Assembly: GCA_944389045.1 (NCBI GenBank)
Contig: CALXKW010000001.1
Coordinates: 1 to 47,857, forward strand
DNA: 47,857 nt
Direction: 5' to 3'
Source: an uncultured Clostridia bacterium
GTDB lineage: Bacteria; Bacillota; Clostridia; Oscillospirales; CAG-272
Notes under the pieces: model-generated
Told to the model about the DNA's origin: nothing
The model's input: only the letters and a program-made list of their open reading frames with translations
Database searches by the model: none
Position numbers and translations under genes: made by a program
In this document: positions 4,931-40,973 of the stretch, one piece after another
How the letters are laid out: each line of letters starts with the position of its first letter
Numbering within the stretch: the stretch's first letter is position 1

Positions 4931-4948
4931 CGAAGGCGGAATCGAAAT

Positions 4949-9228: not shown

Positions 9229-9235
9229 AGAAAAG

Positions 9236-10741: not shown

Positions 10742-10760
10742 AAGCAAGGAGAACAAAAAT

Positions 10761-11741
10761 ATGGAAAACAACAAACGTCCCGAAACGATGGCACGCATCA
10801 ACACGCCGGCGCTTGCCGAAGCGTTCATCGAAGACGAAATTCAGAAGCTCCGCGCTGAAATCGGCGATAAAAAGGTTCTGCTCGCCCTGTCCGGCGGGGT
10901 CGATTCCTCGGTTGTGGCCGCTCTTCTCATCAAGGCGGTCGGGCAGCAGCTGGTCGCGGTCCATGTCAATCACGGCCTTCTCCGCAAAGGGGAGCCCGAG
11001 CAGGTGGTCGAGGTCTTCCGCAACCAGATGAAGGCCAACCTTGTCTATGTCGACGCGGTCGACCGGTTTCTCGACAAGCTCGCCGGTGTGGCGGAGCCCG
11101 AGAAGAAGCGCAAGATCATCGGCGCGGAGTTTATCCGCGTTTTTGAAGAGGAGGCCCGCAAGCTCGAGGGCATCGAGTTTCTTGCACAGGGAACCATCTA
11201 TCCCGACATCCTCGAGAGCGACGGAGTGAAAGCGCATCACAATGTAGGAGGGCTGCCCGAGGATCTTCAGTTCAAGCTGGTGGAGCCGCTGAAATTCCTC
11301 TATAAAGATGAGGTGCGCGTGGTCGGCAAGGCGCTCGGTCTGCCCGACTCGATGGTCTACCGTCAGCCTTTTCCGGGCCCCGGCCTTGGGGTTCGCTGTC
11401 TTGGCGCGATCACGCGCGAGCGCCTTGAGCTGGTCCGGGAGTCGGACGCCATTCTGCGCGAGGAGTTTGCCAAGAGCGGCCTGGAAGGGAAGGTCTGGCA
11501 GTATTTTACCGCGATTCCGGACTTCCGTTCGGTCGGCGTGAAAAACGGAGTCCGCACCTTCGCCTATCCGGTCATTCTCCGCGCCGTCAACACGACCGAT
11601 GCCATGTCCGCCACCATCGAGCCTCTCGATTACGCGCTTCTTGCCCGCATCACGGCGCGTATCACCGAGGAGATCCCGGGCATCAACCGCGTTCTCTATG
11701 ACGTGACCCCCAAGCCCTGCGCTACGATCGAGTGGGAGTAG
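10761..11741 (+). CDS. guaA: GMP synthase, ATP-pyrophosphatase/dimerisation part only (no glutamine amidotransferase domain)
   Basis: P-loop LALSGGVDSSV is about 43 aa from ATG 10761 (SD AAGGAGA upstream). The C-terminus ends TIEWE. 326 aa versus about 510-525 aa for fused GuaA. Confidence 0.88.
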   Translation: MENNKRPETMARINTPALAEAFIEDEIQKLRAEIGDKKVLLALSGGVDSSVVAALLIKAVGQQLVAVHVNHGLLRKGEPEQVVEVFRNQMKANLVYVDAVDRFLDKLAGVAEPEKKRKIIGAEFIRVFEEEARKLEGIEFLAQGTIYPDILESDGVKAHHNVGGLPEDLQFKLVEPLKFLYKDEVRVVGKALGLPDSMVYRQPFPGPGLGVRCLGAITRERLELVRESDAILREEFAKSGLEGKVWQYFTAIPDFRSVGVKNGVRTFAYPVILRAVNTTDAMSATIEPLDYALLARITARITEEIPGINRVLYDVTPKPCATIEWE

Positions 11742-11751
11742 TTGCGAAGTT

Positions 11752-11794
11752 CCCGAAAACCCTTATTCTATAAGGGTTTTCGGGGTTTTCTTTT
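11752..11794 (+). terminator. rho-independent terminator of guaA
   Basis: 14-bp perfect stem CCCGAAAACCCTTA / TAAGGGTTTTCGGG with a 5-nt loop, followed by GTTTTCTTTT. Confidence 0.85.
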
Positions 11795-11807
11795 GTCCAG
11801 AGGTACA

Positions 11808-11900
11808 CGAAAGGTACACGGAGAACGCGAAACCCCTTATCCGATAAGGGTTTCCGGGTTCCTGCTTTTTTCCGATATACGCGAAAGGTACACGGAGAAC
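11808..11900 (+). repeat. two perfect 19-nt direct repeats CGAAAGGTACACGGAGAAC (11808-11826 and 11882-11900) within a diverged 74-bp tandem duplication
   Basis: Read directly. Each copy is preceded by a related hairpin (11752-11784 and 11829-11854). Confidence 0.85.
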
Positions 11901-11915
11901 CGTACTGTGCCCAAT

Positions 11916-12974
11916 CTATGCAAATATCTCAAGTTTTTCGGCGACCTCGTTCTGTTGGTCGGGATAGAGATGAGAATAGATTTCCAAAGTTGTGGTCACA
12001 TTTTCGTGTCCAAGTCTCTCACTGATAAGCAGAGGAGGAAACCCAAGATGGATTAAAAGGCTTGCATGGCTGTGGCGTAAATCGTGTATTCTTATCGGCT
12101 TTACTCCTGACGCCTTGCAGCCCCGTTCCATTTCATGCTTCAGATAGTATTTTGTTATTTCAAACAACCTGTCTGAAGGATGATAGCTGTATAACTTGCT
12201 TACATATTCCCTTACCATATCAAATACAAACTGCGGCAAAGCAATTTTGCGATTGCTCCTTGGAGTTTTGGGCTCAAGGAGCAAATCTTCCCCATTCATT
12301 CTGGCATAATTTTTTGTGATAGAAACTGTCCGTACCTCAAAGTCGAAATCATTCAAAGTTAACGCGAGCAATTCGCCTGAGCGCATTCCGGACCAGTACA
12401 GCAGATTAAAAATAACGGCTGAAGCAGGCTTGTCGCTGACGGCACTTACAAACAATTTAAATTCTTCCGGAGTCCAGAACTGATTCAAATCAGCGCGTTT
12501 CTTTCCGATACTGCCGCTTTTATGTACGGGATTCTCTTTTAGCCCGTAGTATTTTACGGCAAAGTTAAATATGGCGGAAAGCTGATTGTTCAGCGTGCGA
12601 AGATAAGTAGGCTTATACTTCTTTGGACTGCTCAAAAGCTTGGTCTGCCATCTGCGGATAGTCATCGGCTGAATCTCATTTATCTTAAAATGTTTGAAAT
12701 ACGGAAGTATGTGCTGTGAAAAAACAATCTGCTTGCCTTGGTATGTAGTGGGCTTTAATCTCACGGCACAGTCCTCCATATAGATGTCCGTCAAAGCTTG
12801 AAAGGTCATATCGCAATTGTCGGAGGTCTTGCTCAGGAAATCCAGTTCATACTGCTTGGCATCCCTCTGCAAAAGAAAGCCTTTTTTCTTTTTCTGCTTT
12901 CTTTCGCCTGTCCAGTTGGTATAAACAAATTTGCAGTACCATAACCCTGTTTTTTCGTCTTTGTAGGTCGGCAA
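11916..12974 (-). CDS. int: tyrosine site-specific integrase (Tn916/phage-integrase type)
   Basis: N-terminal arm-binding-like KTGLWYCKF. Catalytic GMRSGELLAL, HDLRHSHAS and LGHENVTTTLEIYSHL. TTG start follows GAGGGAGG. Confidence 0.93.
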   Translation of the reverse strand: MPTYKDEKTGLWYCKFVYTNWTGERKQKKKKGFLLQRDAKQYELDFLSKTSDNCDMTFQALTDIYMEDCAVRLKPTTYQGKQIVFSQHILPYFKHFKINEIQPMTIRRWQTKLLSSPKKYKPTYLRTLNNQLSAIFNFAVKYYGLKENPVHKSGSIGKKRADLNQFWTPEEFKLFVSAVSDKPASAVIFNLLYWSGMRSGELLALTLNDFDFEVRTVSITKNYARMNGEDLLLEPKTPRSNRKIALPQFVFDMVREYVSKLYSYHPSDRLFEITKYYLKHEMERGCKASGVKPIRIHDLRHSHASLLIHLGFPPLLISERLGHENVTTTLEIYSHLYPDQQNEVAEKLEIFA

Positions 12975-13028
12975 AAATCTCGCCTCCCTCTTTATATTTT
13001 ATTTTTCCTCGCTTGAATACAGCTGCAT

Positions 13029-13214
13029 TTAGATATATACATGCTCGTAGAAATATCTCGCGGCAATCTTACCGGGAACGATAATTTTGCCTTCGGCCGC
13101 GAGCTTGTCATTCATTTTCTTTACAATGCGGTAAGCGGTGCTGACAGATACATCTAAAATTTCCGCAACCTCCGCCGCTGTTAAAAATTTCTTGTTTGCA
13201 GGAATAGCCGTCAA
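13029..13214 (-). CDS. xis: excisionase / small HTH DNA-binding protein
   Basis: 61 aa with LTAAEVAEILDVSVSTAYRIVKKM. Lies immediately upstream of int. TTG start follows GGAGG. Confidence 0.75.
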   Translation of the reverse strand: MTAIPANKKFLTAAEVAEILDVSVSTAYRIVKKMNDKLAAEGKIIVPGKIAARYFYEHVYI

Positions 13215-13697
13215 ATTCTAAACCTCCTTCCCGACAGCCTACAGCAGCGGATTGTATTCTTCGCTGTTATTCATTATACTATAATTGAATCCAAATCCCC
13301 TTTTAAGCTGTCCGAGAAATAAATGCTGTATCTTTTCTGGCGCCTTATCGCCGGGCCATTTCCTTTGCTCCCTTTGACCAAGTATTGTCAGGCCGTGCTA
13401 TGCACTGTTTCATCTGTGGGCGAGCGGGGCGGGCATAACTGCTTTCGACCGGAACACGCCGATGCTCCCATAGCATCGGCTATGTTGCGAAAAAAAGTAG
13501 TTTATACGGCACAATGCACACTATCCGCAAATCCTGTATAACACCCGGCATAAGGCTATTCAATTGTAAAAATGCTTTTCTAATAAAAGCACTTTCATAA
13601 TATAAATAGGGCCCGGTAGGGTTGTTTTCTTCAAACTTGAAAAATTTTTCATAAAAAATTTTTCCGGCTATTTCATACAATATCCTGACAAAACGCC

Positions 13698-13726
13698 TTG
13701 ACAAGCACTATATCTTGTGGTACAAT
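13698..13726 (+). promoter_or_regulatory. near-consensus promoter of the long + strand operon (TTGACA - 17 nt - TGgTACAAT)
   Basis: TTGACA at 13698-13703 and TACAAT at 13721-13726, with a TG extension. Confidence 0.7.
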
Positions 13727-14090
13727 ACCATTGTAATTGATTTTTTGTGCTTGTCCTACAGGACTTTCCGGTGAGCAGGCTTGCAAGCAGGCCGCCGCAT
13801 TGCACACGTTGTTAAGTTTGTATGTAGTCAGTACACAGCCGCCCTTTTTGATACGGGCGATATGTATTGGCTTTTTATTTTTTTATGGGACGTGTCTCCC
13901 ACACATAGCGAGAATGAATCCGGCTTGCGTTCGGGCAGGCGAGAATACCGATTTGGGTATGGGATTTCATTCCCGCTTTTTTTATTTTCGCCGTACAGCC
14001 GACAGGCTTATGGATAAATACAAACAGAAAGGCGGTTCAGAATATGAACAACAAACCCTACAGGCGTTATCGCCGAAAAAAGGACTCAAA

Positions 14091-15260
14091 ATGCAAACAG
14101 CAAATTTTAAGAAAGGAAATTCAAAAGCAAGCGAAGTACCCTATACAGGCCGAATACAGGCAGAAAGTATTCCTGAAACAAAACCGAAGGCGGGGAGCGT
14201 AATGGGAGGAACCAAACCTTTATCTTACCGGCCGCAGGTTCTTGTGGATACGGCAAACCTGCCGGAGAAGGAGTGGCTTGATTACCGCAGGCGAGGAATC
14301 GGCGGCAGTGACGCTGCGGCGATTCTCGGGGTATCCCCCTTTTCAACAGCAAGAGACCTCTATTACGACAAACTGAAAATCGTAACTTTTGAGGATCCGG
14401 AGGATAACTGGGTACAAAAGAAGATGGGACATCTCTTAGAAGACTTGGTGGCTGAAATATTCCATGTCAGAACGGGATATGAAATCTATCAGGTCAAGAA
14501 GATGTTTTATCATTCTAAACATCCCTTTATGCTGGCGGATGTTGATTACTTTATTACATTGCCAAACGGTGAAACAGCGATTCTTGAAATCAAGACAACC
14601 AATTACAACGCAACAGGCCAATGGTGGAAAGACGGCGCCGAAGCGGTTCCCGTCAACTATGAAATCCAAGGACGGCACTATATGGCGGTTTTGAATGTCA
14701 ATCATGTGTTCTTCTGCTGCCTTTACGGCAATAGCGAGCAAGAGACCATCATTCGCCGCATTGAACGCGATATGGACTACGAGGAAGAGCTGATCGCTCT
14801 TGAAAGCGACTTCTGGAACAATCACATACTCACAAGAACACCCCCTCGCTATGTTGAGGACGGCGACTTGGTGATTGAAAGCGTCAAAAATCATTTTGGG
14901 CCTGCCGACCCGAATGCCGCCGCCATAGAGCTTAGTCTTACAAGCTTTAGTAACGTAACGCGTTATTTAGAGTTACAGGCAGAAAAGTCTGCTCTCAATG
15001 CTGAAGTGAAGCGTGTAGACAATGAAATGAAACGCTTGCAAGGAAGGATTATTGATGAAATGGGCAGGTGCTGCACCGCGGTTTACAGCCGCGATGAAAG
15101 CGACTATACCATTACCTATAATCCCGTTCAGAAAGCCACAATCAGCAAAGAGAATCTGTTCCGGCTGCAGATGCAGCATCCCGACATCTACGAGCAGTTT
15201 GTGAGCATTTCTGAGTCAAGAAGATTTAATGTCAGGAAATCAGCGCAAAAAGCCGCTTGA
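14091..15260 (+). CDS. YqaJ-type (lambda-exonuclease-like) recombination exonuclease
   Basis: EWLDYRRRGIGGSDAAAILGVSPFSTARDLYYDK, and a PD-(D/E)xK-like ADVDYF...AILEIKTT. Start is uncertain (14010, 14091 or 14202). The ORF-track part before 14010 does not look coding. Confidence 0.8.
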   Translation: MQTANFKKGNSKASEVPYTGRIQAESIPETKPKAGSVMGGTKPLSYRPQVLVDTANLPEKEWLDYRRRGIGGSDAAAILGVSPFSTARDLYYDKLKIVTFEDPEDNWVQKKMGHLLEDLVAEIFHVRTGYEIYQVKKMFYHSKHPFMLADVDYFITLPNGETAILEIKTTNYNATGQWWKDGAEAVPVNYEIQGRHYMAVLNVNHVFFCCLYGNSEQETIIRRIERDMDYEEELIALESDFWNNHILTRTPPRYVEDGDLVIESVKNHFGPADPNAAAIELSLTSFSNVTRYLELQAEKSALNAEVKRVDNEMKRLQGRIIDEMGRCCTAVYSRDESDYTITYNPVQKATISKENLFRLQMQHPDIYEQFVSISESRRFNVRKSAQKAA

Positions 15261-18594: not shown

Positions 18595-20295
18595 GTGAAC
18601 AAACCGCACGATTTCCCGTTTGGAATTATGGATGTCGCTGAAATCCTGCAATTGCGGATGCGGCGGCCACATGCTACCGGAGGATATTATGATTGTCCGT
18701 TTTGCGGTGACAAGCGCGGCAAAATGAGTATCAGTACCGAAAAAGATGCCTGGCGCTGTAATTACTGCGGTGAGCACGGCGGTATGCTGGCTTTGTATGC
18801 AAGAATAAACAATATCAGCAATTCCGAAGCCTATCGGGAAATCTGTGAGTCATTGCAAAACGGTGAGTTTGGCAGTTGCTGCGAACCGGTATCTCCTGAC
18901 CACAGGAAGCAGGATTATGCAGAACAAGCACCGCTTGCGGATATCCGTACCATTCACCAGACCTTTTCAATGATGCTGAATATGCTTTCCTTATCCAAGG
19001 AGCACAGAGAGCATTTACGAACTGTGCGCGGGCTCACCGACGGGCAGATTGACGAGCTGATGTACCGAAGTACGCCTCCCTTTTATCTGTGCAAAAAGAT
19101 CGCGCGGCAATTGATTGAAAAAGGCTGTACTCTGCAGGGCGTTCCCGGCTTTTATATGAAAGACGGCGCATGGACCGTTAAATTCTATTCCAAAACGTCA
19201 GGAATTCTGATTCCCGTGAGAGGAATAGACGGTCTTATCCGAGGCATGCAGATACGCCTTGATGTACCGATCAAGGATGATGACGCTCCGGACAAAAGCG
19301 GATCAAAATACATATGGCTGTCCTCTGCCGGAAAAGAGATGGGCGTGTCATCGGGATCTCCCGTTCATTTTACGGGAGATCCCTTTGCGCGGGCTGTCTT
19401 TATTACCGAAGGTTTTTTAAAGGCTGATATCAGCCATTATCTGATGAACCGTTCCTTCGTTGCCATTGCCGGAATCAACAATACATCTCAGCTTGAGCTG
19501 ATGTTTGAACTGCTAAAGGAAAATGGAACGGAGATTATCGTAGAGGCCGCCGATATGGACAAGTTCAGCAACCGGAATGTGGACAGAGGCATTTCTAACA
19601 TTCGTTTGATTGCAAAGAAATGCGGGCTTGAATTCCGCCGCCTGACCTGGAACCCCAATTACAAGGGGATTGATGACTGGCAGCTTGCTCTGAAAAGAAA
19701 GCAACATGGAAAGAAAAACCCGGAGATGAATTTTAAGAAACGCTTTATTTACGGCCTTTGCAGTTTTGACATTATTGACGATGAAATAGCGGAGTGGTAC
19801 GAGTCTGCGGAGAAAAAAGAAACGCTGGAAGAACACCTCGGTTTTACTGCTGAGGAATATTCTGTTTTTATTCAGTCGGATAAGGACACACTTAAAAACA
19901 AGCTGCTTGCCCAAAGGAGAAAGCAACGCTATCGGATCTATCAGCTTGATTTTTCCGATGGAAAACCAAAATCTTTTGCTTTTGGGGGAATCGCGGCACT
20001 TAGAGAGGCGGGATATGAACAGCCTCCCGCGTCGGAATATGCGCTGGTGTGCGAGGACAGTTTGTTTTGCTTTGCAGCCGATACGGAGAAAACGTGTCTT
20101 GAACGGATTTCAGACCGTTACAGCGATAAGCTTCCGGAAGGATATCGGGGCAGGAGCGTCGCTCCATCCGATATTGTAGAGCTTTATGACGAAAATGAAC
20201 GACGATATTTTTACCGCGAAAAGGAATCTTTCTGTCCGGTTAAATTTTCTCCGTTTCTTGTAAAGAAAGCTTCTTGTAAAGAAAGCTTCTTGTAA
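18595..20295 (+). CDS. zinc-ribbon / Toprim-type primase-like protein with YodL-like C-terminal domain
   Basis: CPFCGDKRGK...CNYCGEHGG, Toprim-like FITEGFLKAD and VEAADMD, tail YRIYQLDF...SVAPSDIVELYDE. GTG start follows AAGGAGGA. Confidence 0.7.
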   Translation: MNKPHDFPFGIMDVAEILQLRMRRPHATGGYYDCPFCGDKRGKMSISTEKDAWRCNYCGEHGGMLALYARINNISNSEAYREICESLQNGEFGSCCEPVSPDHRKQDYAEQAPLADIRTIHQTFSMMLNMLSLSKEHREHLRTVRGLTDGQIDELMYRSTPPFYLCKKIARQLIEKGCTLQGVPGFYMKDGAWTVKFYSKTSGILIPVRGIDGLIRGMQIRLDVPIKDDDAPDKSGSKYIWLSSAGKEMGVSSGSPVHFTGDPFARAVFITEGFLKADISHYLMNRSFVAIAGINNTSQLELMFELLKENGTEIIVEAADMDKFSNRNVDRGISNIRLIAKKCGLEFRRLTWNPNYKGIDDWQLALKRKQHGKKNPEMNFKKRFIYGLCSFDIIDDEIAEWYESAEKKETLEEHLGFTAEEYSVFIQSDKDTLKNKLLAQRRKQRYRIYQLDFSDGKPKSFAFGGIAALREAGYEQPPASEYALVCEDSLFCFAADTEKTCLERISDRYSDKLPEGYRGRSVAPSDIVELYDENERRYFYREKESFCPVKFSPFLVKKASCKESFL

Positions 20296-20416: not shown

Positions 20417-21250
20417 ATGGGAGTATTCTCAGAAATTAATATTGATAAAAATATAAATAATACCTTTACCGGCGCACAAACCATCACAGAGAAAACAATG
20501 GCCGAAAAAGTCGAAGCACTTGACGACGCGCGTCAGGCCGCCGAGGCGGAGGCAGCACAGGCAGCCCTTGCCCAAATGACCGGCTGCGCATCCGAAGCTG
20601 CCGGCAAGGACACGGAAGAAGCCCCTGCAGAGGAAAGCGAGGATATAACGCGAAAAGAACATGAGGAAAAAGAGGCAAAGAGAAAAGCCGAATGGGAGAC
20701 AAAGCGCAAAGCCAAAGAGGAAGAAGAAACCTTTGCATGGGAAAACGCGATAGCTCTTGAAGACGACGCCCTTGTGGCGGCCTCTATGAAACGTGTGGGC
20801 GACGATGCAGAGCGTATAACCAGGCGAAATATGAAGCAATGCGTTACCGAAATGGTACAAACCTACTGTATTGAGGATTTGGACTTTGCCCGGCAGGTAA
20901 TGCATCCGCGCAAAAATATGATACGGTGTTTCCGGTATATCAACCGAAAAGCCCGCGCATTTATTGAACAGGAGATGAAAGATAACGATGAAAAGCCGAT
21001 TAACGGCATTTATGGCAGCGATGTGCCGGATGATCTCTGTTATCAGTGGGCGCGGGAATATTTTATGGATATGGATGCCGAGGAGGACAAAGAAAATGAA
21101 GAGAAATTTGTATCTAAACCCTATACAGGCAAATCGGCGGTTGTCAAATCCCCCAATAAGTCTGCAAAGAAAAAGACGGAGCCCAAAAAAGAAGCTCCTA
21201 AAACGAACACTGCTTCTTTGTCAGACGACGGGCAAATCAGCTTATTTTAA
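20417..21250 (+). CDS. PcfK-like protein (conjugative-element family of unknown function)
   Basis: Acidic A/E/K-rich N-terminal half. The C-terminal part MKQCVTEMVQTYCIED...DVPDDLCYQWAREYF matches my memory of the PcfK-like family. Not verified. Confidence 0.5.
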   Translation: MGVFSEINIDKNINNTFTGAQTITEKTMAEKVEALDDARQAAEAEAAQAALAQMTGCASEAAGKDTEEAPAEESEDITRKEHEEKEAKRKAEWETKRKAKEEEETFAWENAIALEDDALVAASMKRVGDDAERITRRNMKQCVTEMVQTYCIEDLDFARQVMHPRKNMIRCFRYINRKARAFIEQEMKDNDEKPINGIYGSDVPDDLCYQWAREYFMDMDAEEDKENEEKFVSKPYTGKSAVVKSPNKSAKKKTEPKKEAPKTNTASLSDDGQISLF

Positions 21251-21270: not shown

Positions 21271-23280
21271 ATGGACAAAAGAGCTTTGCGAAAAATTTCG
21301 GGGCCGAACAGAAAACTGAATTGTCGCAGCGGTGTTTTTTATGCCGAACAGATTCAGTATGTTGTTTGTACGGAAGTTAAGAATATCGCACATCGCCGCA
21401 CTCTTGTCTTATATGTCTATGACAAAGAGCGCGTGCTTGCCGGGGACTCTATCCCAAAGTGGACAGTATTTCAGAGTAAAGAGGAGTATATTGCTCTATG
21501 CCGGGATGAAGAAGGGACACGGTGGCATCAGTCTATGTTCAACTCCCTCAACAGGGAGTATTGTTTTTCCGGAAAGTGTTCCTTTTACTCCTATGCCGAT
21601 GAAGAAAGAGTTACTCGTTTCTGTCAAAAAGCAAATCTCAAAGGTTTTAACAGTTTGGATGGACTCCAGTATGAACTGTTTTGCAAAAGGCAAAAAGCCA
21701 GAAGATTAAAAAGTCAGAAGAAAATTGCGGAACGAATGAAGCCGGTAAAATCACTGCCAAGGGATATCAAAGGATTTATTTTCAGAGAGACCCTGCCTCA
21801 CTATATCTTTTACGATTATGTGAAGGGTAAAGCGCCGCGGAATGCCTGCTGCACCGCCTGCAGGCACGAAGTATTTGTTACTGAGGCAAAGCATAACGGC
21901 AAGGGTATATGCCCTCGCTGCAAAAGTGACGTAATCTACAAGAGCCGCGGCCGCCGCGGAAATATCGTTGACCGTTCCACGGTGCAGGTAATTCAGCGCG
22001 CAGGAGAAAATGAAGTGATTATCCGTATTGTAAAGTCCTATTGCCGGTATTGCAAGAGCGATACGCCGAAATACGACATTTATGAAAACGCAAGGTTGTT
22101 TCTCTTCCGGGAGGACGGCAAACCGGTAAAACAGGAGGACTATTACTATTGTTATGACAGGAAACAATTAACTCCGTGGCACAAAGGAAAACGCCCGGGA
22201 TTCGGCGCATGGTCGTATAATTTCGAGGCGGATTATTCCGGGTATCTTTATCACCGCAATCTGGAAAACGAACTGAAAGGAACGCCTTGGCAATACTCGG
22301 CGCTGAAGGAATACTATATGGCAGATCCCACACCGCTTTATGTTGATCGGTATCTGAATGAGTATCTACACTATCCGATGCTGGAATATTTGGTGAAGTT
22401 GAAGTTATTCCGCCTTGCAACCTACGTTGTTTACGGAGATGCAGACGGTTCTAAATTCTACGGAAACAACGAGGTTCTCAACAGCAGTGGTAAAACCCTG
22501 ACGGAGATACTCGGCGTTGAAAAGAAGCATGTCCCGTTTTTGCAGACGATCAATCCGGGCGGAAAGCAGCTTAAATTAATAAAGTCGTTGCTGAGGGAAG
22601 GCATTGAGTTGGATGTGGATTTGCTGAAATGGTGCAGTGAAAACAGCGTGGGAAACGCAGAATACCTTACTGTTCCTCTGCGCTATATGACACCCCATAG
22701 GCTGCTGCGCTATGCCACAGAGCAGTTTGCAGCGCACAGAAAGATTTCCAATACAGATAATGGTTATTATTCTGTGAACTACATGATGTCCGATTACAAG
22801 GACTATCTTTGTATGTGCATGGCGCTGGATCACGATATGAAGAGCAGCTTTGTCCTGTTTCCAAATGATTTGAAAGCAGCGCACGACAGAGTGAATGATT
22901 TGAATCAAGCGGAAATCACAGAAGCATACGACAGGAGGATTGCGAAAATGTTTAATGAGTTGCAGGAGCGGTATTCTTTCAAAAAAATGGGGTTTATGGT
23001 AATTGCTCCGCGTTCTTCAAAAGAGATTATTCGAGAAGGAGACAAGCTGCATCACTGTGTTGGCCGGTATGTCAAGGATGTGGTGAAAGATAATTGCACC
23101 ATTCTGTTTATCCGTAAAGCTTCCGCTCCGAAAGAACCGTTCTGCACAGTAGAAATTAAACATGGTGATATAGTTCAGGCACGAATACAGAATAACGGAA
23201 GCCCTCCGCCCGAGGTACAAAGGTTTATCGAGTTATGGAAACAGCAGGTGCTTTATGCTCCTGCGACAACTGCGGCGTAG
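21271..23280 (+). CDS. PcfJ-like protein
   Basis: C-terminal GDKLHHCVGRYVKDVVKDNCTILFIRK...FCTVEIKHGDIVQARIQNN is the PcfJ-type signature. There is an internal zinc ribbon CCTACRHE...CPRCKSD. Confidence 0.6.
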   Translation: MDKRALRKISGPNRKLNCRSGVFYAEQIQYVVCTEVKNIAHRRTLVLYVYDKERVLAGDSIPKWTVFQSKEEYIALCRDEEGTRWHQSMFNSLNREYCFSGKCSFYSYADEERVTRFCQKANLKGFNSLDGLQYELFCKRQKARRLKSQKKIAERMKPVKSLPRDIKGFIFRETLPHYIFYDYVKGKAPRNACCTACRHEVFVTEAKHNGKGICPRCKSDVIYKSRGRRGNIVDRSTVQVIQRAGENEVIIRIVKSYCRYCKSDTPKYDIYENARLFLFREDGKPVKQEDYYYCYDRKQLTPWHKGKRPGFGAWSYNFEADYSGYLYHRNLENELKGTPWQYSALKEYYMADPTPLYVDRYLNEYLHYPMLEYLVKLKLFRLATYVVYGDADGSKFYGNNEVLNSSGKTLTEILGVEKKHVPFLQTINPGGKQLKLIKSLLREGIELDVDLLKWCSENSVGNAEYLTVPLRYMTPHRLLRYATEQFAAHRKISNTDNGYYSVNYMMSDYKDYLCMCMALDHDMKSSFVLFPNDLKAAHDRVNDLNQAEITEAYDRRIAKMFNELQERYSFKKMGFMVIAPRSSKEIIREGDKLHHCVGRYVKDVVKDNCTILFIRKASAPKEPFCTVEIKHGDIVQARIQNNGSPPPEVQRFIELWKQQVLYAPATTAA

Positions 23281-23338
23281 GAAAGGAGTTAAGTCAAATG
23301 AATGCATTCTTCGCTATGGCGGAGTGATTATGTTACTT

Positions 23339-23370
23339 CAAAGGGAGAAGGCGGCCGCCTTCTCCCTTTG
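23339..23370. repeat. perfect 32-bp palindrome CAAAGGGAGAAGGCGG/CCGCCTTCTCCCTTTG (GCGGCCGC core)
   Basis: All 16 position pairs are complementary. Lies 28 nt upstream of the next start codon. No U-tract follows. Confidence 0.9.
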
Positions 23371-23398
23371 ACTTTATATCAGAAAGGATTAAAAACGA

Positions 23399-24718
23399 AT
23401 GGAAGAATTAAAAAAAGCCTTTTATGAAGTGATGTACAAATACCAAAAGTCTTTCAGCGAGCATGGCGTCATGCAGAACCTGAATGCATGGGCCGAGGGC
23501 AAGAGCCAATTGCTCTCTCTTTTGCGCCGGCATCCGAACTGGAATGAGAAAGCTAAAGCGGTCGTAATTGAGTTCAAGGAGGGGCGCGAAATTGAGCGTG
23601 ATACGGTTGATGAAATCGCCTTTACGATGCTGAGTATTGCAGACCGAGTGATAGGAGAGAGCGACAGAGCTTTGTTTTGCACCGCTTTTAACGCGGCAGT
23701 CCATAAATACAGCAAGACGCTTTCCGAGGAGACACTTGAAATTATTCGTCAAAACGGAGGCATCAAGTGCGCTGTGGGACAAAAAACAAGCCGTATCATC
23801 GGCAAGCTTTGCCGCAAATTTGGGCTGGAATCATGTGAGGACTATGAAAGAATATATGCACGGCTTTCGGATGCTTTGAACCCATTGCAGATTGAAAAAA
23901 CAGCGGTATTGTCGGTACATCCGTGTGACTTTCTGGAAATGTCAAGCTCCAGTAATACATGGACCTCCTGCCACAATCTTGCTACCGGCAAATATCAAAG
24001 CGGGTCGCTGTCTTATATGACGGATGAGGTCAGCATGATATTCTTTACTGTTGACCCCGACGTTACAGAAAGCTTTTACCGCGCCCCAAGACGTACAAGA
24101 CAGATATTTATCTTCAAAGACAACTGCTTGTATCAATCAAGACTTTATCCCAATGAGGATGAGGACGTCTTCACTCAGAACCGGGAAATCGTACATAAAA
24201 TTCTTGCGGGCTGTCTTGGCGTGCCTAATTTGTGGGTACTGAAAAGCAATTGTAACAATGTAAATTGCTGTGAGTCGGCAAAAGGCAGTGCTCAATACCC
24301 CGATTACGATTTTTGCGGGAATTTGTCTTATATCAAAGGAACAACCAGTATTGCTCATATGGTAATCGGAAAGCCGCCGCTCTGCGTCTGCTGCGGGAGG
24401 CCTTTCCGAGCATTCAAAAGCATTAAATGCGACTGTGAGAAAACCGTTGTTTGTCAGGATTGCGGAAGAACAGTACCGATAAACCGGGCGGTATATGACG
24501 AGGGCGCGTTTCATTGCAGCACCTGCCGTCATATTTGTGCTAAGTGCAAGAGAGCGATTAGTGATACGGTATATCCTGCATTCGACAGAAAAGGAAACCC
24601 TGTTGAAATTTGCTTTGAATGTTACCAAACGGCTACGGAGCCTTGTGCGTTTTGCAGCGTAAAAGGAGTGTGCAGTATTATAGGCGGCTCTCTTTGTCAG
24701 CATGCCGCTATCCGGTAG
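23399..24718 (+). CDS. hypothetical Cys-rich protein (unassigned N-terminal domain plus multi-zinc-ribbon C-terminus)
   Basis: 439 aa. Has an LSVHPCDFLEMSSSSNTWTSCHN signature. The C-terminal 110 aa contain CVCC, CDC, CQDC, CSTC, CAKC, CFEC and CAFC. Confidence 0.75.
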   Translation: MEELKKAFYEVMYKYQKSFSEHGVMQNLNAWAEGKSQLLSLLRRHPNWNEKAKAVVIEFKEGREIERDTVDEIAFTMLSIADRVIGESDRALFCTAFNAAVHKYSKTLSEETLEIIRQNGGIKCAVGQKTSRIIGKLCRKFGLESCEDYERIYARLSDALNPLQIEKTAVLSVHPCDFLEMSSSSNTWTSCHNLATGKYQSGSLSYMTDEVSMIFFTVDPDVTESFYRAPRRTRQIFIFKDNCLYQSRLYPNEDEDVFTQNREIVHKILAGCLGVPNLWVLKSNCNNVNCCESAKGSAQYPDYDFCGNLSYIKGTTSIAHMVIGKPPLCVCCGRPFRAFKSIKCDCEKTVVCQDCGRTVPINRAVYDEGAFHCSTCRHICAKCKRAISDTVYPAFDRKGNPVEICFECYQTATEPCAFCSVKGVCSIIGGSLCQHAAIR

Positions 24719-24734
24719 AATAGGAGGATGTGTC

Positions 24735-25745
24735 ATGATAAGCAATGTAAATGAGCTCAAAACAGTTATTCAAATGAAGCAAAAGCAGCTGAAAATCTAT
24801 CTTGAGGCTGCCCTGAAAAAAATGGGATACTTGCCTGAAAGTCATAAAGGCTTTCTTTATGCGAAAGGCCGCATACCCGTTCTCTTGGTGGCTCATCTTG
24901 ATACTGTGCATTGCGGTCAAGCCGAGATCATCTGCTTCTCCGAGGATCTGCGTTATGTCATGTCCCCCCAGGGGATAGGCGGCGACGACAGATGCGGAGT
25001 CTATATGATCCTACAGATTATACGGCAAGCCAAATGTCATGTACTTTTCTGCGAGGATGAAGAAATCGGCGGTCGTGGCGCCGGCGCATTTGCCGGCAGC
25101 AAAATCATGCCCAAGGTAAACTACATTGTAGAAATTGACAGAAAGAGCGAAAATGACGCCGTTTTTTATGAGTGCGACAATCCGAGCTTTACCGATTTCG
25201 TACTTGGCTTTGGATTTGAGGAAAGGTCCGGAAGCTTTTCCGATATTTCTGTTGTGGCGCCGCATCTCAATACGGCAGCAGTCAATATTAGCGCAGGGTA
25301 TTATAACGAACACAAGCGGTATGAATATATTGACATGCTTGCTGTAGAGAATAATATACGGCGTATTACACAAATGGTATTGACCGACACCGGGCATTTT
25401 AACTACATAAAAAGAAACAATCAATTATCCCTGGTTGATTGGATGCCGGCAGCTTTTCCCTCCATGGTCACGGGCGGTAAGCAGAGATTGCTGATGGATG
25501 TGCCCGCTGAAGCGCATATCATTACCAATGGCTGTGAGATATGCTCCGGGACAACCTATTTAATTGACCGGGCGAGCAAGGTATATATTTACCTTAAAGA
25601 ATTGAACGCCGCCGTTGAGTCCGAATATTGCTATGCCTGCGGAGACAATGGCGAGCAGATTGCTTTTTCCGACAGCATTGCAAAAATACTGCCCGTTATT
25701 TCCTTTGAGGAAGCAGTTGAACGTCTGACGATGAATTACGGCTGA
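24735..25745 (+). CDS. clan MH (M28/M20-like) zinc metallopeptidase with C-terminal zinc-ribbon extension
   Basis: LLVAHLDTVH, GIGGDDRCGVYM, FCEDEEIGGRGA, EIDR and GYYNEH. The extension carries CEIC...CYAC. ATG 24735 follows AGGAGGA. The ORF-track start is 24702. Confidence 0.7.
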   Translation: MISNVNELKTVIQMKQKQLKIYLEAALKKMGYLPESHKGFLYAKGRIPVLLVAHLDTVHCGQAEIICFSEDLRYVMSPQGIGGDDRCGVYMILQIIRQAKCHVLFCEDEEIGGRGAGAFAGSKIMPKVNYIVEIDRKSENDAVFYECDNPSFTDFVLGFGFEERSGSFSDISVVAPHLNTAAVNISAGYYNEHKRYEYIDMLAVENNIRRITQMVLTDTGHFNYIKRNNQLSLVDWMPAAFPSMVTGGKQRLLMDVPAEAHIITNGCEICSGTTYLIDRASKVYIYLKELNAAVESEYCYACGDNGEQIAFSDSIAKILPVISFEEAVERLTMNYG

Positions 25746-25835: not shown

Positions 25836-25872
25836 TATACCCCAGAAAGCCGCGAAGGCTTTCTGGGGTATA
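25836..25872. terminator. 16-bp perfect stem-loop after the + strand operon
   Basis: TATACCCCAGAAAGCC-GCGAA-GGCTTTCTGGGGTATA. No clean U-tract on either strand, so terminator function is inferred from position only. Confidence 0.45.
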
Positions 25873-26388: not shown

Positions 26389-28350
26389 ATGTGTATCATT
26401 ATGAAACCAAAAGTGATTAGTCGTTTTGTTTCGTTGCTCCTTGCGCTCTCGCTGTTTTTAACACTGTTTCCTTGTATGGCATTTGCTGAAGGTACAACTT
26501 CAACCGTCTCCACGAGACAACCAACATTCGAAGATATTCTTGCCGGAAATGTAACACCTGAAGAATTTGAGCTTTTTTTCAACAATCAGAACGTAGCTAC
26601 TACATATAATGTATCAGCAACGTCCTATATTTCAAACGACACCTATTATATAAACAATAGCTACTGCGGCAAATATCTTTCTTATTCATCATCTTCGGCT
26701 GCGGTAGCGTCGGGATTGATGTCGTCTTTAGGAAATTCTATTCTTTGGGAAGTTAGCAGTATTAGTGGAGGATATGTAATTCGTTCAAAATCCGATTCTA
26801 CTAAATATCTTGGCGTTCCATCAAGCACATCGAATTCTGGCGTTTCCATAGTTACTGTGAGCAGCGGCTCTTCTGTCCCATCAAGATGTATTTGGACAAT
26901 ATCAACAGCAAGTAATGGCGGTACACTCATAAAAAATACATACAATTCCCGTTATCTTTATTCTCTTGGAACCGCGCTGGCCACAGCATCCAGTACCGGT
27001 ACGGTTGGATCCGTTGATTACGACTCAAAGGTATGGCGAATTGCAACCGATTCATACTATGGTTCTTCCGGTACATATAAGGAATTAACTTCATATACCG
27101 TATCCAATACTTCCATTTGCATAGGGGAACCGATAAACCCAACTATTGTAAAAAGTCCTTCTAATACTTTGTGGGCATCTGCAAAAGACTTTACTTATTC
27201 ATCCGGAGACCAATATCAGGTTGATTATCGTACCGGAACAATTACCGGAACTCAGAACGGCAGCAAACAAGTTACAGCCACACACAAAGTGACCGGAAAG
27301 ACTGCAACTTTCACTATAACCGTAGATGATTCCATGCTCGCAGCAAGTTGTCTCGAAGGGGCGACTTATAATATTCGTTATAATGCGGGAAATAATTGCA
27401 GCGGCCTTACAAATGGAGTTGTTTGGAGCTCCTCTGATACAAGCGTTGCGACGGTATCGTCTTCCGGTGTGGTTACAGGAGGCGAATCCGGGTACGCATT
27501 TATTTATGCAGAAAACTTGGATGAAGAAATAATTCTTGCATGTGAAATCAAAGTCCAAAGTGTTCTAAATCAAAAATTAGCTAACCTCTCTTCTAATGAA
27601 ATTCAATATTTATATTGTCCGAGTTCTTATTTATCCTTATGGACTTCAAGCCTGCCGGATCCGTTTGAATTCAAATTAAATGTACTCTATTGTCTGCGCG
27701 AATATTATACAAAGCCGCAAAGTCAACACCCAACAGGAGCAGAGTTGGTGACCATATTAAGTGATTTTTTAGTTATTGATGCCGATTCTGCTTTGTGGTT
27801 GTTTAACGAATGCTACTTGGGTTATCATGGCCTTTATAATAGCGATTTCTTAACCGCGCAGCGTATAAACTATTTTAATTACTTAAAAGAAATCATTACC
27901 TTCTGTGCCTTCAGCATGGCGGCGAATCTGGACCCCGTGAACTCGCTCTCCAACTGCAACGGATATGATGACTTCGTCTACGATTTGTCTAGAGAATGGG
28001 GACATAATGAGTCCAGTCCAAACGTAATGCTTGGTTCAAATGGTCATGAAGGAAAATTTTACTTCAAGGAAGCACAAAAATACGGCTATAGATACTTCCA
28101 TTCCTATGAATACGATTCAGTTCTTAACAAATACGGAAGTGAAGTTGTTCGATCGGCAAATATAAGATTCATACAAAGATGCCTTAATGACAACAATAAT
28201 TTCTTTTTTTCGCATGATCCAACACGAGCTCCACTGAATTCTTCTCTGCATATGGAATATTCTTATTTATATAATTACTACCTCAATGAATGGGGAGTTG
28301 TATATTTGAAAAAAGAATTTGGACTTTGGTTCTTTTCAGATACTCCGTAA
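26389..28350 (+). CDS. secreted protein: signal peptide, ricin-type beta-trefoil, Big_2-like Ig domains, unassigned C-terminal domain
   Basis: Signal peptide MKPKVISRFVSLLLALSLFLTLFPCMAFA (ATG 26401 is an alternative start). Three xxW subrepeats (ILWEV, CIWTI, KVWRI). Big_2-like VTATHKVTGKTATFTITV and VVWSSSDTSVATVSSSGVVTG. Confidence 0.7.
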   Translation: MCIIMKPKVISRFVSLLLALSLFLTLFPCMAFAEGTTSTVSTRQPTFEDILAGNVTPEEFELFFNNQNVATTYNVSATSYISNDTYYINNSYCGKYLSYSSSSAAVASGLMSSLGNSILWEVSSISGGYVIRSKSDSTKYLGVPSSTSNSGVSIVTVSSGSSVPSRCIWTISTASNGGTLIKNTYNSRYLYSLGTALATASSTGTVGSVDYDSKVWRIATDSYYGSSGTYKELTSYTVSNTSICIGEPINPTIVKSPSNTLWASAKDFTYSSGDQYQVDYRTGTITGTQNGSKQVTATHKVTGKTATFTITVDDSMLAASCLEGATYNIRYNAGNNCSGLTNGVVWSSSDTSVATVSSSGVVTGGESGYAFIYAENLDEEIILACEIKVQSVLNQKLANLSSNEIQYLYCPSSYLSLWTSSLPDPFEFKLNVLYCLREYYTKPQSQHPTGAELVTILSDFLVIDADSALWLFNECYLGYHGLYNSDFLTAQRINYFNYLKEIITFCAFSMAANLDPVNSLSNCNGYDDFVYDLSREWGHNESSPNVMLGSNGHEGKFYFKEAQKYGYRYFHSYEYDSVLNKYGSEVVRSANIRFIQRCLNDNNNFFFSHDPTRAPLNSSLHMEYSYLYNYYLNEWGVVYLKKEFGLWFFSDTP

Positions 28351-38287: not shown

Positions 38288-40336
38288 TTAATTGGACATG
38301 TTATACAGTTTGAATTTGTTAGCATTTACTGTACTCATACATACACTGCACATTGTTAGATTGGCGTTAACATCTGCCGTATTAATACTCATTATGCAAT
38401 CTTCTGTTTTATCGCAATGAGGAGCTCCCAAAAGATGCAAATGCTCATGCACTGTTGTTCTCAAAATACGATCAATGTTTCCACTATTAATATATGCGTT
38501 GAATAAAGCAGACATTATTACAATTCTATTTCCGTTTAAATATGACCATCCATATGCGGATTGCGTGGAATGCGTTGTTCCATCTGTATAACAACCCCTA
38601 TGACCAGTATATAGTATATTCGTTTGTTCAGCATTTTCTAATGATTGTCCATTTGAAATATTACCGAGAAACTTGGTTTCAGCTTTATGATGCAAACCAT
38701 TTGTACATTCTTCTACAGTACTGTCAGATGCAGCACTTTTGCAATCGTAGCAATAGACATCGATTTGATTTTTATGGTTACAATTACTTGTATATGGATA
38801 TGATTCGTACACACTATCTGAATAATCCACATCTAATCTTATTCCAAATCGCTCTTTGAATACGCTGGCAAAAGATAACCCTGCCGAATTGTCTCCATAT
38901 ATGCTTTTCAAAACATTCATATATGAAGTACCGTATCTGTCTACAAATCCTTGATCATATATAACATTAATTTTTAATGTTAAAGCCTCAATATCCCAGT
39001 TGCAGCTATTTGAATAACTGCCTTGTACAAGATTCCCGGATTCAATCTTCAAATATAGTGGATTACTCGCTCCACGTTCATACTGATTTTTACTTTGAAT
39101 TCTATAGTGTCCATCACTAGTCTTCTCGATTTTCCACAAACCATATACGCTGGAATATGTTGATTGAGATATTTTAGCACCTTCTGAATTACTTGCCGGA
39201 GCTCTTAAATAATATCCTGTAACGTCATTTTTGATTTTATAAAATCCATTTTCATATTCAAATTTCCACATCATTGATGTACGCGAATATGAGTATGTAT
39301 TCGCGACAATATAAGAACCAACATCTGCATTCGCCGGCTGGAATAAAAGGCTGCTTGATGCATTTTTGAAAAAGTGAACAATATCATCTTCAAAGTTAAT
39401 TGTAACTAATCTGCTCCAAATCCAAGGGGCACCTGAATAGGTCCACTGAACTCTTATAATTCCACCTTTCAATGCAGTCAGTAGCCCACTCGAAGAATTA
39501 ATTGTTGCTTTATCTGTTTCCGAATAATCCGGTTCACTTACGCTGTACACAATAGGGCCGTTTATTCCAACCGTTGAACTATACATGCAAACATCAAAGT
39601 CGAAGGTCTCACCTCGCATCAGTTCATTGGTATATGAGATGCTTGTTGTGCTATTTATAGCTGCTCCTGTGTATTGATAAAATTGCCACTTTGTACCCGT
39701 ATCATTGGGGTTGGTTGTAAATTTAAGTATAGGACCGCCACCAGTATCTGATGTGGATTTAATATAATACGTCGTACTACCATCATTATACCAGATGTAC
39801 TTGTATCCATCTGTAGTTGTTGTCATTTTCCATGTATATTTGATTGATAAATTACTATCTGTAGCGGGTTGTCCAGAGACCTTTACTTTTCCCGAAACTG
39901 GAGCGTTGTTTAACACACTCGGATATATTATAATCTCGTTATTTAACATGCTCCTAATAACATAGTCATTCGTTTCCGATCTGTATGCTATTTTAAATAA
40001 AAATTCACGGTCTGTACTACTGATAGGTGGTGTCGAGTTTGTTTCTTGATAGACCCACGAGAGTGAACTAAGAGTGTTATTTTGGACATAAACATTAGTA
40101 TTCGCTTTTCTAATCGCATATACACCGTTGATCGTAGAACTTGACGTTAACTGTTGCTCAACACTCTCGCTTTCTGCTACATAGCTATCATTTGGTATAA
40201 TGTCATACTCTTGAAGCGGTTCTTTGTTTACCGTTTGAATTTCCTCCACATTTGTCAATGCAGTAACAGGTATTGATAACACAACCATAAATAGTGCAAT
40301 TAACACAGATAATAATCTTGTTGTTTTATGATTCAT
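38288..40336 (-). CDS. secreted zinc metalloprotease (metzincin/reprolysin-like) with two ricin-type beta-trefoil modules
   Basis: Signal peptide. xxW triplets (YTWKM, TKWQF; MMWKF, GLWKI, CNWDI). Catalytic TVHEHLHLLGAPHCD (HExxHxxGxxH) followed by CIMS (Met-turn). Confidence 0.8.
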   Translation of the reverse strand: MNHKTTRLLSVLIALFMVVLSIPVTALTNVEEIQTVNKEPLQEYDIIPNDSYVAESESVEQQLTSSSTINGVYAIRKANTNVYVQNNTLSSLSWVYQETNSTPPISSTDREFLFKIAYRSETNDYVIRSMLNNEIIIYPSVLNNAPVSGKVKVSGQPATDSNLSIKYTWKMTTTTDGYKYIWYNDGSTTYYIKSTSDTGGGPILKFTTNPNDTGTKWQFYQYTGAAINSTTSISYTNELMRGETFDFDVCMYSSTVGINGPIVYSVSEPDYSETDKATINSSSGLLTALKGGIIRVQWTYSGAPWIWSRLVTINFEDDIVHFFKNASSSLLFQPANADVGSYIVANTYSYSRTSMMWKFEYENGFYKIKNDVTGYYLRAPASNSEGAKISQSTYSSVYGLWKIEKTSDGHYRIQSKNQYERGASNPLYLKIESGNLVQGSYSNSCNWDIEALTLKINVIYDQGFVDRYGTSYMNVLKSIYGDNSAGLSFASVFKERFGIRLDVDYSDSVYESYPYTSNCNHKNQIDVYCYDCKSAASDSTVEECTNGLHHKAETKFLGNISNGQSLENAEQTNILYTGHRGCYTDGTTHSTQSAYGWSYLNGNRIVIMSALFNAYINSGNIDRILRTTVHEHLHLLGAPHCDKTEDCIMSINTADVNANLTMCSVCMSTVNANKFKLYNMSN

Positions 40337-40790: not shown

Positions 40791-40973
40791 TTATAGTTCA
40801 AACTTCTCAATGCAGTTCATGAAGCGCAAACAGAGCTCTTGATATAAATCTTTATCGAAGGTGCCGTCAACTATGGATTCTTTTACAAGAAGCGGGGTGT
40901 ACATATTCAAAAGCTCTTCGACCGCAGCAATATCATTCTGTTTTGCACGAATAAGTAATTCCTTGAAATTCAT
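40791..40973 (-). CDS. small helix-turn-helix protein (Tn916 orf8-like partner of the sigma-like protein)
   Basis: 60 aa: MNFKELLIRAKQNDIAAVEELLNMYTPLLVKES. Resembles sigma region-2-like small proteins that follow orf7-like genes. Overlaps the upstream gene by 4 nt. Confidence 0.6.
   Translation of the reverse strand: MNFKELLIRAKQNDIAAVEELLNMYTPLLVKESIVDGTFDKDLYQELCLRFMNCIEKFEL

Follow-up and report, generated by a model that had tools for sequence, protein, structure and literature searches.

A conserved gene pair encoding an enzyme-like cysteine-array protein and a predicted clan-MH hydrolase on Firmicute mobile elements

Among described systems, ImmA/IrrE-ImmR of integrative and conjugative elements and prophages combines a metallopeptidase and a partner encoded by adjacent genes, with ImmA, a HEXXH zincin (family M78), cleaving a small helix-turn-helix (HTH) repressor. 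The peptidases of clan MH (M20 with PepT and DapE, M42 with TET and FrvX, and M28) share an alpha/beta fold and the ligand order H-x-D ... D ... E-E ... D ... H, and standalone phage peptidases with a compact MH domain (PHROG families 34186, 4191, and 21791) are encoded in non-structural, early-type locations. No sign of a functional system is more reliable than a gene pair that is kept together amid changing surroundings, and the defense and anti-defense systems of the last decade were mostly found through such conserved pairing. Here, we analyzed a 47,857-nucleotide (nt) stretch of DNA (the window) from an uncultured Clostridia bacterium (contig CALXKW010000001.1, assembly GCA_944389045.1), in which two adjacent genes, designated G1 and G2, encode a protein of an uncurated family with a C-terminal cysteine-pair array and a predicted two-zinc hydrolase, respectively. 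Like ImmA/IrrE-ImmR, the two are adjacent genes for a metallopeptidase and a partner on a mobile element, and G2 resembles clan MH in fold and ligand order and the standalone phage peptidases in its compact domain and type of location. Our comparative data indicated that G1 and G2 are very probably coupled in function, as a module whose hydrolase is active, extending an initial annotation, made from the letters of the window alone, that had singled them out as a candidate two-gene system.

Conserved pairing of G1 and G2

With one genome taken per species, a scan anchored on G1 returned 47 loci (Oscillospiraceae, Lachnospiraceae, Eubacteriales, Erysipelotrichia, and other Bacillota), in which G2 follows G1 wherever downstream DNA suffices, including three loci (L027, L045, and L051) without the PcfK/PcfJ block; G2 was also present in 12 of 12 viral contigs anchored on G1. 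A search anchored on G2, based on motifs of its close subfamily, matched 212 viral stretches, and an open reading frame (ORF) of the G1 family stood immediately beside G2 in all of the best 79 loci among them. Loci in which G1 or G2 was at least 80% identical were merged, giving 51 non-redundant groups, of which 22 derive from genome assemblies of Clostridia and 29 from records of phages or viruses. Every one of the 51 groups has G1 and G2 side by side on one strand, with G1 first in 50, and clustering of all 6258 ORFs revealed G1 and G2 as the sole genes found in every group, the next real ORF cluster in phages occurring in 10 of 29. The initial annotation had proposed conservation of the two genes as neighbors as one of its tests, and this conservation was evident in integrative elements and phages alike. 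Because they are adjacent in all groups and are the only genes common to all, the pair is best described as a self-contained module and not as a by-product of the PcfK/PcfJ operon.

The pairing also extended to remote relatives and to unusual arrangements. Five distant G1 representatives with enough flanking DNA, chosen regardless of their neighbors (P0349, P0390, P0375, P0360, and P0329), all had G2 as a neighbor, in one case in reversed order. The spacing between the two genes, as called or annotated, ranges from -13 to +28 nt, and in one record (P0243) they form a single in-frame fusion of 799 amino acids (aa). In a Subdoligranulum variabile metagenome-assembled genome (L027, 11401-12383), the G2 homologue is split into ORFs of 193 and 131 aa beside an intact G1, which may reflect a pseudogene or a sequencing error. 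In the window, the longest G2 ORF spans 24702-25745, but the N-termini of 45 homologues align to the Met at ATG 24735, and an AGGAGG ribosome-binding site lies 7 nt before this ATG and 3 nt past the G1 stop; the start of G2 was therefore placed at ATG 24735. The resulting gap of 16 nt from the G1 stop codon (24716-24718) agrees with that calculated initially from the same start.

All carriers are mobile elements of Firmicutes, comprising lytic Enterococcus phages, large gut phages, and small int/xis elements. In Enterococcus phages EF1/H1, the stop codon of a 399-aa G1 paralogue overlaps the start of a 368-aa G2, and a second G1 paralogue of 623 aa lies nearby; the EF1 locus (L054) thus holds two G1 paralogues, one of 623 aa with Cys pairs (4569-6440) and one of 399 aa with an acidic tail (7667-8866), and one peptidase. 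A second G1 paralogue without the zinc array was also observed about 2-4 kb 3' of G2 in L080-L090, L113, L120, L128, and L131-L142. The neighbors in phage loci include many small ORFs of no assigned function and genes for ParB-like, DUF3846, LPD28, DpnD-PcfM, and RelB/ParE proteins; among ten phage neighbors annotated with PHROG, only one ParB-like, one transposase, and one integrase assignment was obtained, with the rest unmatched to function. In the loci examined, the pair was never next to structural genes, and a virion or prohead protease was rejected on this ground, as well as on the presence of the pair on capsid-less int/xis elements. In Pseudoflavonifractor capillosus ATCC 29799 (L045) and in a 185-kb IMG/VR contig (L064), the pair follows an ORF of about 1680 aa without a family match, in phage-like surroundings with DUF3825, a sigma-factor-like gene, and a RecJ-like gene; in the case of L045, these surroundings suggest that a cultured strain carries a very large prophage.

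More distant relatives of G2 occur without G1. The standalone peptidases Thermus P23-45 gp56, Lactococcus P087 gp23, and Bacillus Tsamsa gp22 are 27-30% identical to G2, which matched phrog_34186 at 1e-41 and phrog_4191 at 3e-26, and no G1-like gene lies within 5 kb of any of the three. These standalone relatives are located in early or accessory regions; Tsamsa gp22 lies near an ocr-like gene, and P23-45 gp56 lies within genes 1-77, a block bound by the phage's own RNA polymerase (bioRxiv 10.1101/2022.12.01.518664). Since the distant peptidases lack G1, the G1-coupled peptidases appear as a distinct clade of a wider set of early or accessory phage peptidases.

Features of the two proteins

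The core motif block of G1 follows the pattern S-x-[H/N]-P-x-D ... W-x-S-C-H ... G-x-Y-x2-G-x2-S-Y-x2-D ... R ... Q-x-R-x-Y-P. In the window protein, HPCDFLEMS is followed by five residues and then W-T-SCH (residues 174-192), so that the signature HPCDFLEMS-x6-W-x-SCH, as first proposed, is present with a spacer shorter by one residue. Across 58 diverse homologues, many of them only 17-35% identical to the window protein, D177, S182, S190, C191, G197, G202, Y206, D209, R234, Y250, Y300, and D302 are invariant, and K35, G127, K129, R132, D158, S172, P175, W188, H192, S205, Q246, R248, P251, R262, and W279 are kept in at least 90%. Complete or nearly complete conservation is seen at more than 25 polar positions, and the conserved polar residues are retained even by paralogues without the zinc array. 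Such a number of invariant polar residues suggests a pocket for catalysis or for precise binding of a ligand, and G1, judged from its alignments, looks like an enzyme-like protein with a constellation of Ser-Cys-His, Asp, Tyr, Arg, and Lys residues. A universal zinc site formed by HPCD...SCH was rejected, as 23 of 32 phage members have Asn in place of H174, and 19 of 32 have Leu, Ile, or Met in place of C176. Only D177, S190, C191, and H192 of the signature highlighted in the initial annotation are general across the family, whereas H174 and C176 are fixed only in the integrative-element clade.

The dense cysteine cluster of G1, initially read as several zinc modules, was also recovered. The motifs CVCC, CDC, CQDC, CSTC, CAKC, CFEC, and CAFC lie at residues 329-419, and the 16 Cys of the array are invariant across 56 close-family homologues and mostly kept in phage members. 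With its conserved CxxC-type pairs, the beta-hairpins of the AlphaFold model, and its matches to LIM and zinc-finger proteins by sequence and fold, the array resembles LIM or zinc-ribbon modules and would suffice for about four predicted Zn(Cys4) sites; these matches are compositional (E values of 1e-3 to 1, or repeats).

The remainder of G1 matched no characterized family, in keeping with the initial reading, which could assign it no motif. Neither G1 nor any of 33 diverse family members had a match in Pfam, NCBIfam, or PADLOC; the two PHROG families matched by G1 have no assigned function, and the source names of its homologues are all "hypothetical protein". The AlphaFold model of G1 has a predicted local distance difference test (pLDDT) score of 87, mostly above 90 in the alpha/beta domain. 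A Foldseek search against the PDB gave no match at E<0.1, the matches listed being LIM-like on the Cys array or scattered and of low probability, and against predicted viral structures the sole significant matches were uncharacterized phage proteins; sequence searches of the PDB matched only zinc-finger and LIM proteins. The family is nevertheless large, with 453 proteins found by a word-indexed search and 3930 clusters at 50% identity by a full profile search (E<=1e-3), 838 of them at E<=1e-30.

Several candidate relationships of G1 were considered and rejected. Homology to PcfJ was dismissed on hhalign probabilities of 0.07% (single sequence) and 1.3% (profile-profile), with PF14284 not matched; across the comparisons with PcfK and PcfJ, the probabilities ranged from 0.1 to 1.3%, indicating no homology. 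The order of the motifs N/H-P-x-D, S-C-H, and L-Y-Q-S-R resembles that of thymidylate synthase (TS), and G1 was therefore compared with TS and dCMP hydroxymethylase; hhalign returned 0.2-0.8% without covering the motif region, a result to be read as a lead only, and no TS was among the Foldseek matches listed. Sub-threshold Pfam matches to TM1506/DUF1893 and zf-dskA_traR, found in only 1 of 33 family members, were regarded as noise. Echoes of the GNAT-type proteins FemX and ATE1 in the G1 fold (probability 0.06-0.15 over 70-90 columns) may serve as a lead only.

The evidence for G2 was of a different kind. The motifs HLDTVH, GGDDRCG, EDEEIGGRG, EIDR, and YYNEH are all present, and 52 of 52 diverse sequences share H54, D56, D84, D85, E109, E110, D135, and H193, with the metal ligands H54, D85, E110, D135, and H193 in canonical order and the general-base E109 directly before E110. 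In a profile of 46 homologues, HLDT, GGDDR, EDEE, and GYYNEH align with the PepT motifs HxD, GADD, DEE, and GGYNxH, in three separate short stretches. The AlphaFold model (pLDDT 86) had 172 Foldseek matches in the PDB at E<=1e-3, headed by M42 TET aminopeptidases (PhTET1), PepT, and the catalytic domain of DapE (E values of 1e-9 to 1e-6), so that the fold corresponds to that of M42, M20, and M28 enzymes. The di-zinc ligand set proposed in the initial annotation, for which misalignment had been named as a possible objection, is therefore upheld by a residue-for-residue alignment with PepT, complete conservation, and a clan-MH fold. Conserved ligands and modeled structure assign G2 to clan MH, as a predicted two-zinc exopeptidase or amidohydrolase with an intact active-site residue set; by itself, G2 is a further member of clan MH, an already-known kind of enzyme.

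Assignment below the clan is less sharp. The Pfam scores of the window protein fall short of the gathering thresholds for M42 (18.2 against 23.2 bits), M28 (17.3 against 21.3), and M20 (13.6 against 24.6), and its NCBIfam and Pfam matches to M42, M28, M20, and PepT are all sub-threshold, whereas some homologues reach the M28 threshold (precomputed PF04389 matches; P0243 at 25.0 bits). The assignment was therefore kept at the level of the clan, borderline M28. D135 and H193 are separated by 58 residues, with no inserted M20 lid or dimerization domain, and the PDZ-like domain of M42 is absent as well. Residues 230-247 form a disordered linker to the C-terminal domain, which is specific to the integrative-element clade. 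The zinc ribbon CEIC...CYAC suggested for this part was not supported: its Cys are the majority residue at 0 of 4 positions in a broad alignment, only C302 being nearly invariant in the close family, and the region is a beta-rich domain behind the linker. HEXXH, the motif of ImmA/IrrE and of SprT-like zincins, is absent from the sequences of G1 and G2, and neither protein has an HTH or M78 match in Pfam.

Host element and neighborhood

An element is inserted directly behind guaA, with the region from integrase to promoter (11916-13726) as its left end (Table 1). The gap behind guaA (11742-11915) contains two similar hairpins (11751-11785 and 11830-11859) and a repeated GAAAGGTACACGGAGAAC at about 11809-11826 and about 11884-11901, adjoining the integrase gene, and is probably the attachment-site region of the element. 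The + strand operon encodes, in order, a YqaJ exonuclease, a RecD2-like helicase, an unassigned protein, a protein with a DnaG-type zinc ribbon and YodL, PcfK, PcfJ, G1, and G2. The ORF called for the YqaJ/RecE-like exonuclease (13737-15260) gives 507 aa, compared with 352 aa in relatives, and the domain does not begin before residue 168-179; translation probably starts about 150 codons further downstream. The 566-aa protein at 18595-20295 carries a DnaG-type CHC2 zinc ribbon and a C-terminal YodL, with weak PADLOC matches to the DRT "RTasDnaG-like" models, and this architecture has been described for polyvalent proteins of conjugative elements (PMC5512222).

The PcfK/PcfJ-like identity initially given to the two genes upstream of the pair was confirmed (4.6e-17 and 4.1e-42, respectively). 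In the PcfK-like gene, the match covers the C-terminal half (residues 135-277), and the N-terminal half is of low complexity and rich in Ala, Glu, and Lys. Its relatives are named "Cas9 inhibitor AcrIIA9 family protein" in RefSeq, and AcrIIA9 is known to carry a PcfK domain (PMC6739104). PcfK and PcfJ lie immediately upstream of the pair in 19-20 of the 22 genome-derived groups and are absent from phage loci; the placement of the pair after PcfK/PcfJ thus holds in the window but is lineage-specific and lies outside the module. An obligatory PcfK-PcfJ-G1-G2 block was likewise rejected, both on the phage loci and on the variable insertion slot found between PcfJ and G1. This slot (23281-23398) holds only the 34-nt palindrome in the window, whereas relatives have 2-4 kb of extra genes there (L055, 13708-15907; L057, 2373-5301; L011, L020, and others), including a NAD-dependent DNA ligase, LigA, directly upstream of G1 in Vescimonas pMM35_02 (L055). 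The operon block recurs around a 50%-identity G1 homologue on six contigs. The minimal form of the element is seen in a complete small relative from Vescimonas fastidiosa, in which int-xis is followed by exonuclease-RecD-hypothetical-YodL-PcfK-PcfJ-hypothetical-LigA-G1-G2 and then by HTH, sigma-70, and HTH genes, without capsid or type IV secretion genes. The view of the pair as the last unit of the + strand operon is accurate for the conserved backbone in the window, but relatives continue with HU and an RNase_T-like gene.

Hairpins flank the pair on both sides, as the initial annotation had noted, although the upstream palindrome spans 34 nt (23338-23371) and not 32 bp (23339-23370). Its folding free energy is -27.7 kcal/mol (z -6.6) and that of the downstream stem-loop (arms 25836-25851 and 25857-25872) is -29.7 kcal/mol (z -7.5); in neither case did a shuffled control fold as well. 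The palindrome looks like a terminator or attenuator stem-loop, and the downstream stem-loop has no T-tract. Of nine related loci examined, four (L007, L001, L014, and L025) also have GC-rich hairpins 30-70 nt 5' of G1.

Table 1. Coordinates of the gene pair, its domains, and surrounding features in the window
Feature	Position	Strand	Remark
G1	23399-24718	+	439 aa; uncurated family
G1 residues 1-320, alpha/beta domain	23399-24358	+	confident model, invariant polar residues
G1 core motif block, S172-P251	23912-24151	+	homologue alignments
G1 residues 324-433, Cys-pair array	24368-24697	+	16 invariant Cys
AGGAGG, G2 ribosome-binding site	24722-24727	+	read from sequence
G2	24735-25745	+	336 aa; clan-MH two-zinc hydrolase (predicted)
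G2 residues 1-228, minimal MH catalytic domain	24735-25418	+	Foldseek and conserved ligands
G2 ligand codons	H54 24894-24896; D85 24987-24989; E109/E110 25059-25064; D135 25137-25139; H193 25311-25313	+	
G2 residues 249-336, beta-rich C-terminal domain	25479-25742	+	alignments and AlphaFold
Perfect palindrome, 17+17 = 34 nt	23338-23371	+	between PcfJ and G1; followed by CTTTATAT
Stem-loop, 16-nt arms, 5-nt loop	25836-25872	+	90 nt past G2 stop
Pyrimidine and purine biosynthesis genes, guaA last	328-11741		
Tyrosine integrase	11916-12974	-	context
Xis-like HTH	13029-13214	-	context
Operon promoter candidate	13698-13726	+	near-consensus; context
PcfK-like gene	20417-21250	+	PcfK match; RefSeq relatives annotated AcrIIA9 family
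PcfJ gene	21271-23280	+	PcfJ match
Secreted Big_2 protein	26389-28350		cargo right of the pair
RHS-repeat protein, 2130 aa	30399-36791	-	cargo
Ricin-lectin/M54-like protein	38288-40336	-	cargo
sigma70_r4 protein	40973-41494	-	cargo
DUF5131	41763-42722	-	cargo
Fic	43278-43991	-	cargo
N6-methylase-SNF2 helicase fusion	44671-47679	-	cargo

Functional interpretation and comparison with known systems

In the mechanism that we propose, G1 and G2 would be translated from one mRNA and would cooperate on one substrate, whether in a complex or one after the other. The pocket and zinc-finger array of G1 could provide target recognition and/or the first chemical step, after which G2 might trim the terminal residue(s); the target would most likely be a host protein or a peptide-bearing molecule, a point that we make with more reserve. 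Our tentatively favored reading is a two-protein enzyme, consisting of an enzyme-like target-binding partner and an exopeptidase, that serves establishment or counter-defense. Establishment in a new cell, through counter-defense or host take-over, is possible as the role of the module but is proposed with caution. It is suggested because the carriers share only the property of being invading DNA, together with conflict-type neighbors (PcfK of the AcrIIA9 family, DUF3846, LPD28, DpnD-PcfM, and the ocr-like gene near the Tsamsa homologue) and a non-structural, early or accessory location. In a more specific version, which we consider unlikely, G1 would be the founder of a novel enzyme fold whose Ser-Cys-His centre lies in a basic pocket; with the G2 aminopeptidase as its partner, it could edit the termini of host proteins or build and trim an aminoacyl or peptidyl adduct, representing a new enzymatic class of counter-defense or host take-over across lytic phages, temperate phages, and integrative elements. 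The only recurrent echoes of the G1 fold, all of them very weak, are of the GNAT-type aminoacyl-tRNA transferases FemX and ATE1.

Several observations weigh against a two-protein enzyme for establishment or counter-defense. Neither G1 nor G2 had a family match in PADLOC-DB v2 at E<=0.01. In integrative elements, the pair sits among genes for an exonuclease, a helicase, a ligase, HU, and a DnaQ-like exonuclease, and in Enterococcus phages it lies between the anaerobic and aerobic ribonucleotide reductase (RNR) operons, contexts that a nucleic-acid or nucleotide role fits equally well. G2-like peptidases stand alone in other phages, suggesting that G1 is not needed for basic peptidase activity. 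The P0243 fusion continues through the intergenic sequence and could stem from an assembly error, and all loci were found by similarity to G1 or G2, so that the "100%" pairing describes this clade and not all phage MH peptidases.

In the main rival explanation, itself unlikely, the pair carries out a two-step modification or salvage of a nucleotide, nucleic acid, or small molecule, G1 being a Cys-dependent transferase or ligase on a phosphate-rich substrate and G2 an M20-type deacylase or amidohydrolase (DapE/ArgE-like). The invariant K35, K129, R132, R234, R248, and R262 of G1 beside its Ser-Cys-His motif would suit such a substrate, clan MH includes many non-peptidase amidohydrolases, with the DapE catalytic domain among the top folds of G2, and LigA upstream in L055 and a radical-SAM gene 3 kb downstream in L056 add to the RNR and DNA-metabolism neighbors. 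However, no fold or family known to modify nucleotides was detected, the likeness to TS failed in both hhalign and Foldseek, no other pathway gene consistently co-occurs, and the elements lack genes of the dUMP/dCMP hydroxymethylase type. A lower probability still is given to an accessory of element DNA replication or processing, which might remove protein or peptide adducts from DNA ends or act architecturally through the zinc-finger array. PepA, an aminopeptidase of family M17, has an architectural role in Xer recombination at cer, and a multi-zinc array could bind nucleic acid; the pair also shares its operon with the YqaJ exonuclease, the RecD2-like helicase, the primase-type zinc ribbon/YodL protein, LigA, HU, and the DnaQ-like exonuclease. 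None of these replication genes lies beside the pair in phage loci, the array is LIM-like (a protein-binding type) and dispensable in paralogues, and the invariant catalytic-type residues of G1 argue against a purely architectural role.

Defense and toxin-antitoxin genes are common on mobile elements, and the pair could accordingly be a defense, exclusion, or addiction module with a toxic or effector activity in G2 and a sensor or regulator in G1; we regard this as rather improbable, slightly less so than a replication accessory. Systems of this kind typically have the regulator upstream and the effector downstream, L155 has RelB/ParE close to the pair, and the cargo of the window includes RHS, Fic, and the SNF2-methylase fusion, but PADLOC gave no match, the pair is carried by large Enterococcus phages that are strictly lytic and by 29 phage groups, where it occupies early-type regions, and G1 is much larger than an antitoxin and much more like an enzyme. 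The presence of G2-like peptidases alone in phages further suggests that they are not intrinsically toxic. Interference with peptide signals, in which G2 would degrade imported arbitrium-, Phr-, or pheromone-type peptides and G1 would act as binder or regulator, is decidedly improbable: the closest structural relatives of G2 are oligopeptide exopeptidases (PepT tripeptidase and TET) and all carriers are Firmicute mobile elements, but the proposal is purely conjectural, no signal-system genes are linked to the pair, and the conserved pocket of G1 would be left without a role. The whole operon is syntenic within the integrative-element clade, so that adjacency of G1 and G2 there is uninformative alone and would also be expected of unrelated neighbors inherited together by chance in one lineage. 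Adjacency is kept, however, over 29 phage groups with no further gene in common and at G1 identities as low as 17-30%, and survives two inversions of gene order (L118 and L160) and changes of flanking genes, by which this last explanation is effectively refuted.

The pair is abundant and, in elements of Clostridia that are dominant in the human gut, neighbors a gene of an anti-CRISPR family. Identification of its target would extend the establishment functions of mobile elements by a new enzymatic activity and provide a function for thousands of "hypothetical" phage genes. The Enterococcus phages that carry the pair are cultivable, making direct testing possible. In the literature on PcfJ, PcfK, AcrIIA9, YodL, polyvalent proteins, and phage M28 peptidases or aminopeptidases, we found no description of the pair, and a survey of polyvalent proteins covers YodL without naming a partner of the M20, M28, or aminopeptidase type (PMC5512222). 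The view that the pair is not a named system was thus sustained in the literature searched as well as in PADLOC-DB v2. With no family, solved fold, defense model, or paper matched in the sources searched, the pair as a system appears to be new.

PcfK/AcrIIA9 and PcfJ of conjugative elements are neighbors of G1 but not homologous to it, and a variable slot lies between. The G1 array shares regular Cys pairs with LIM, zinc-ribbon, and treble-clef modules and matches LIM and C2H2 arrays, but it lacks the eukaryote-type LIM consensus and is joined to a 320-aa domain of unmatched fold. Unlike ImmA/IrrE-ImmR, the pair has no HEXXH and no HTH, G2 has another fold, and the carriers also include lytic phages. 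The standalone phage peptidases differ from G2 in having no G1-like gene nearby. Within clan MH, G2 is set apart by sub-threshold Pfam scores, the absence of a lid or PDZ-like insert, a C-terminal beta domain of its own, and its coding on mobile elements only, at a fixed position beside G1.

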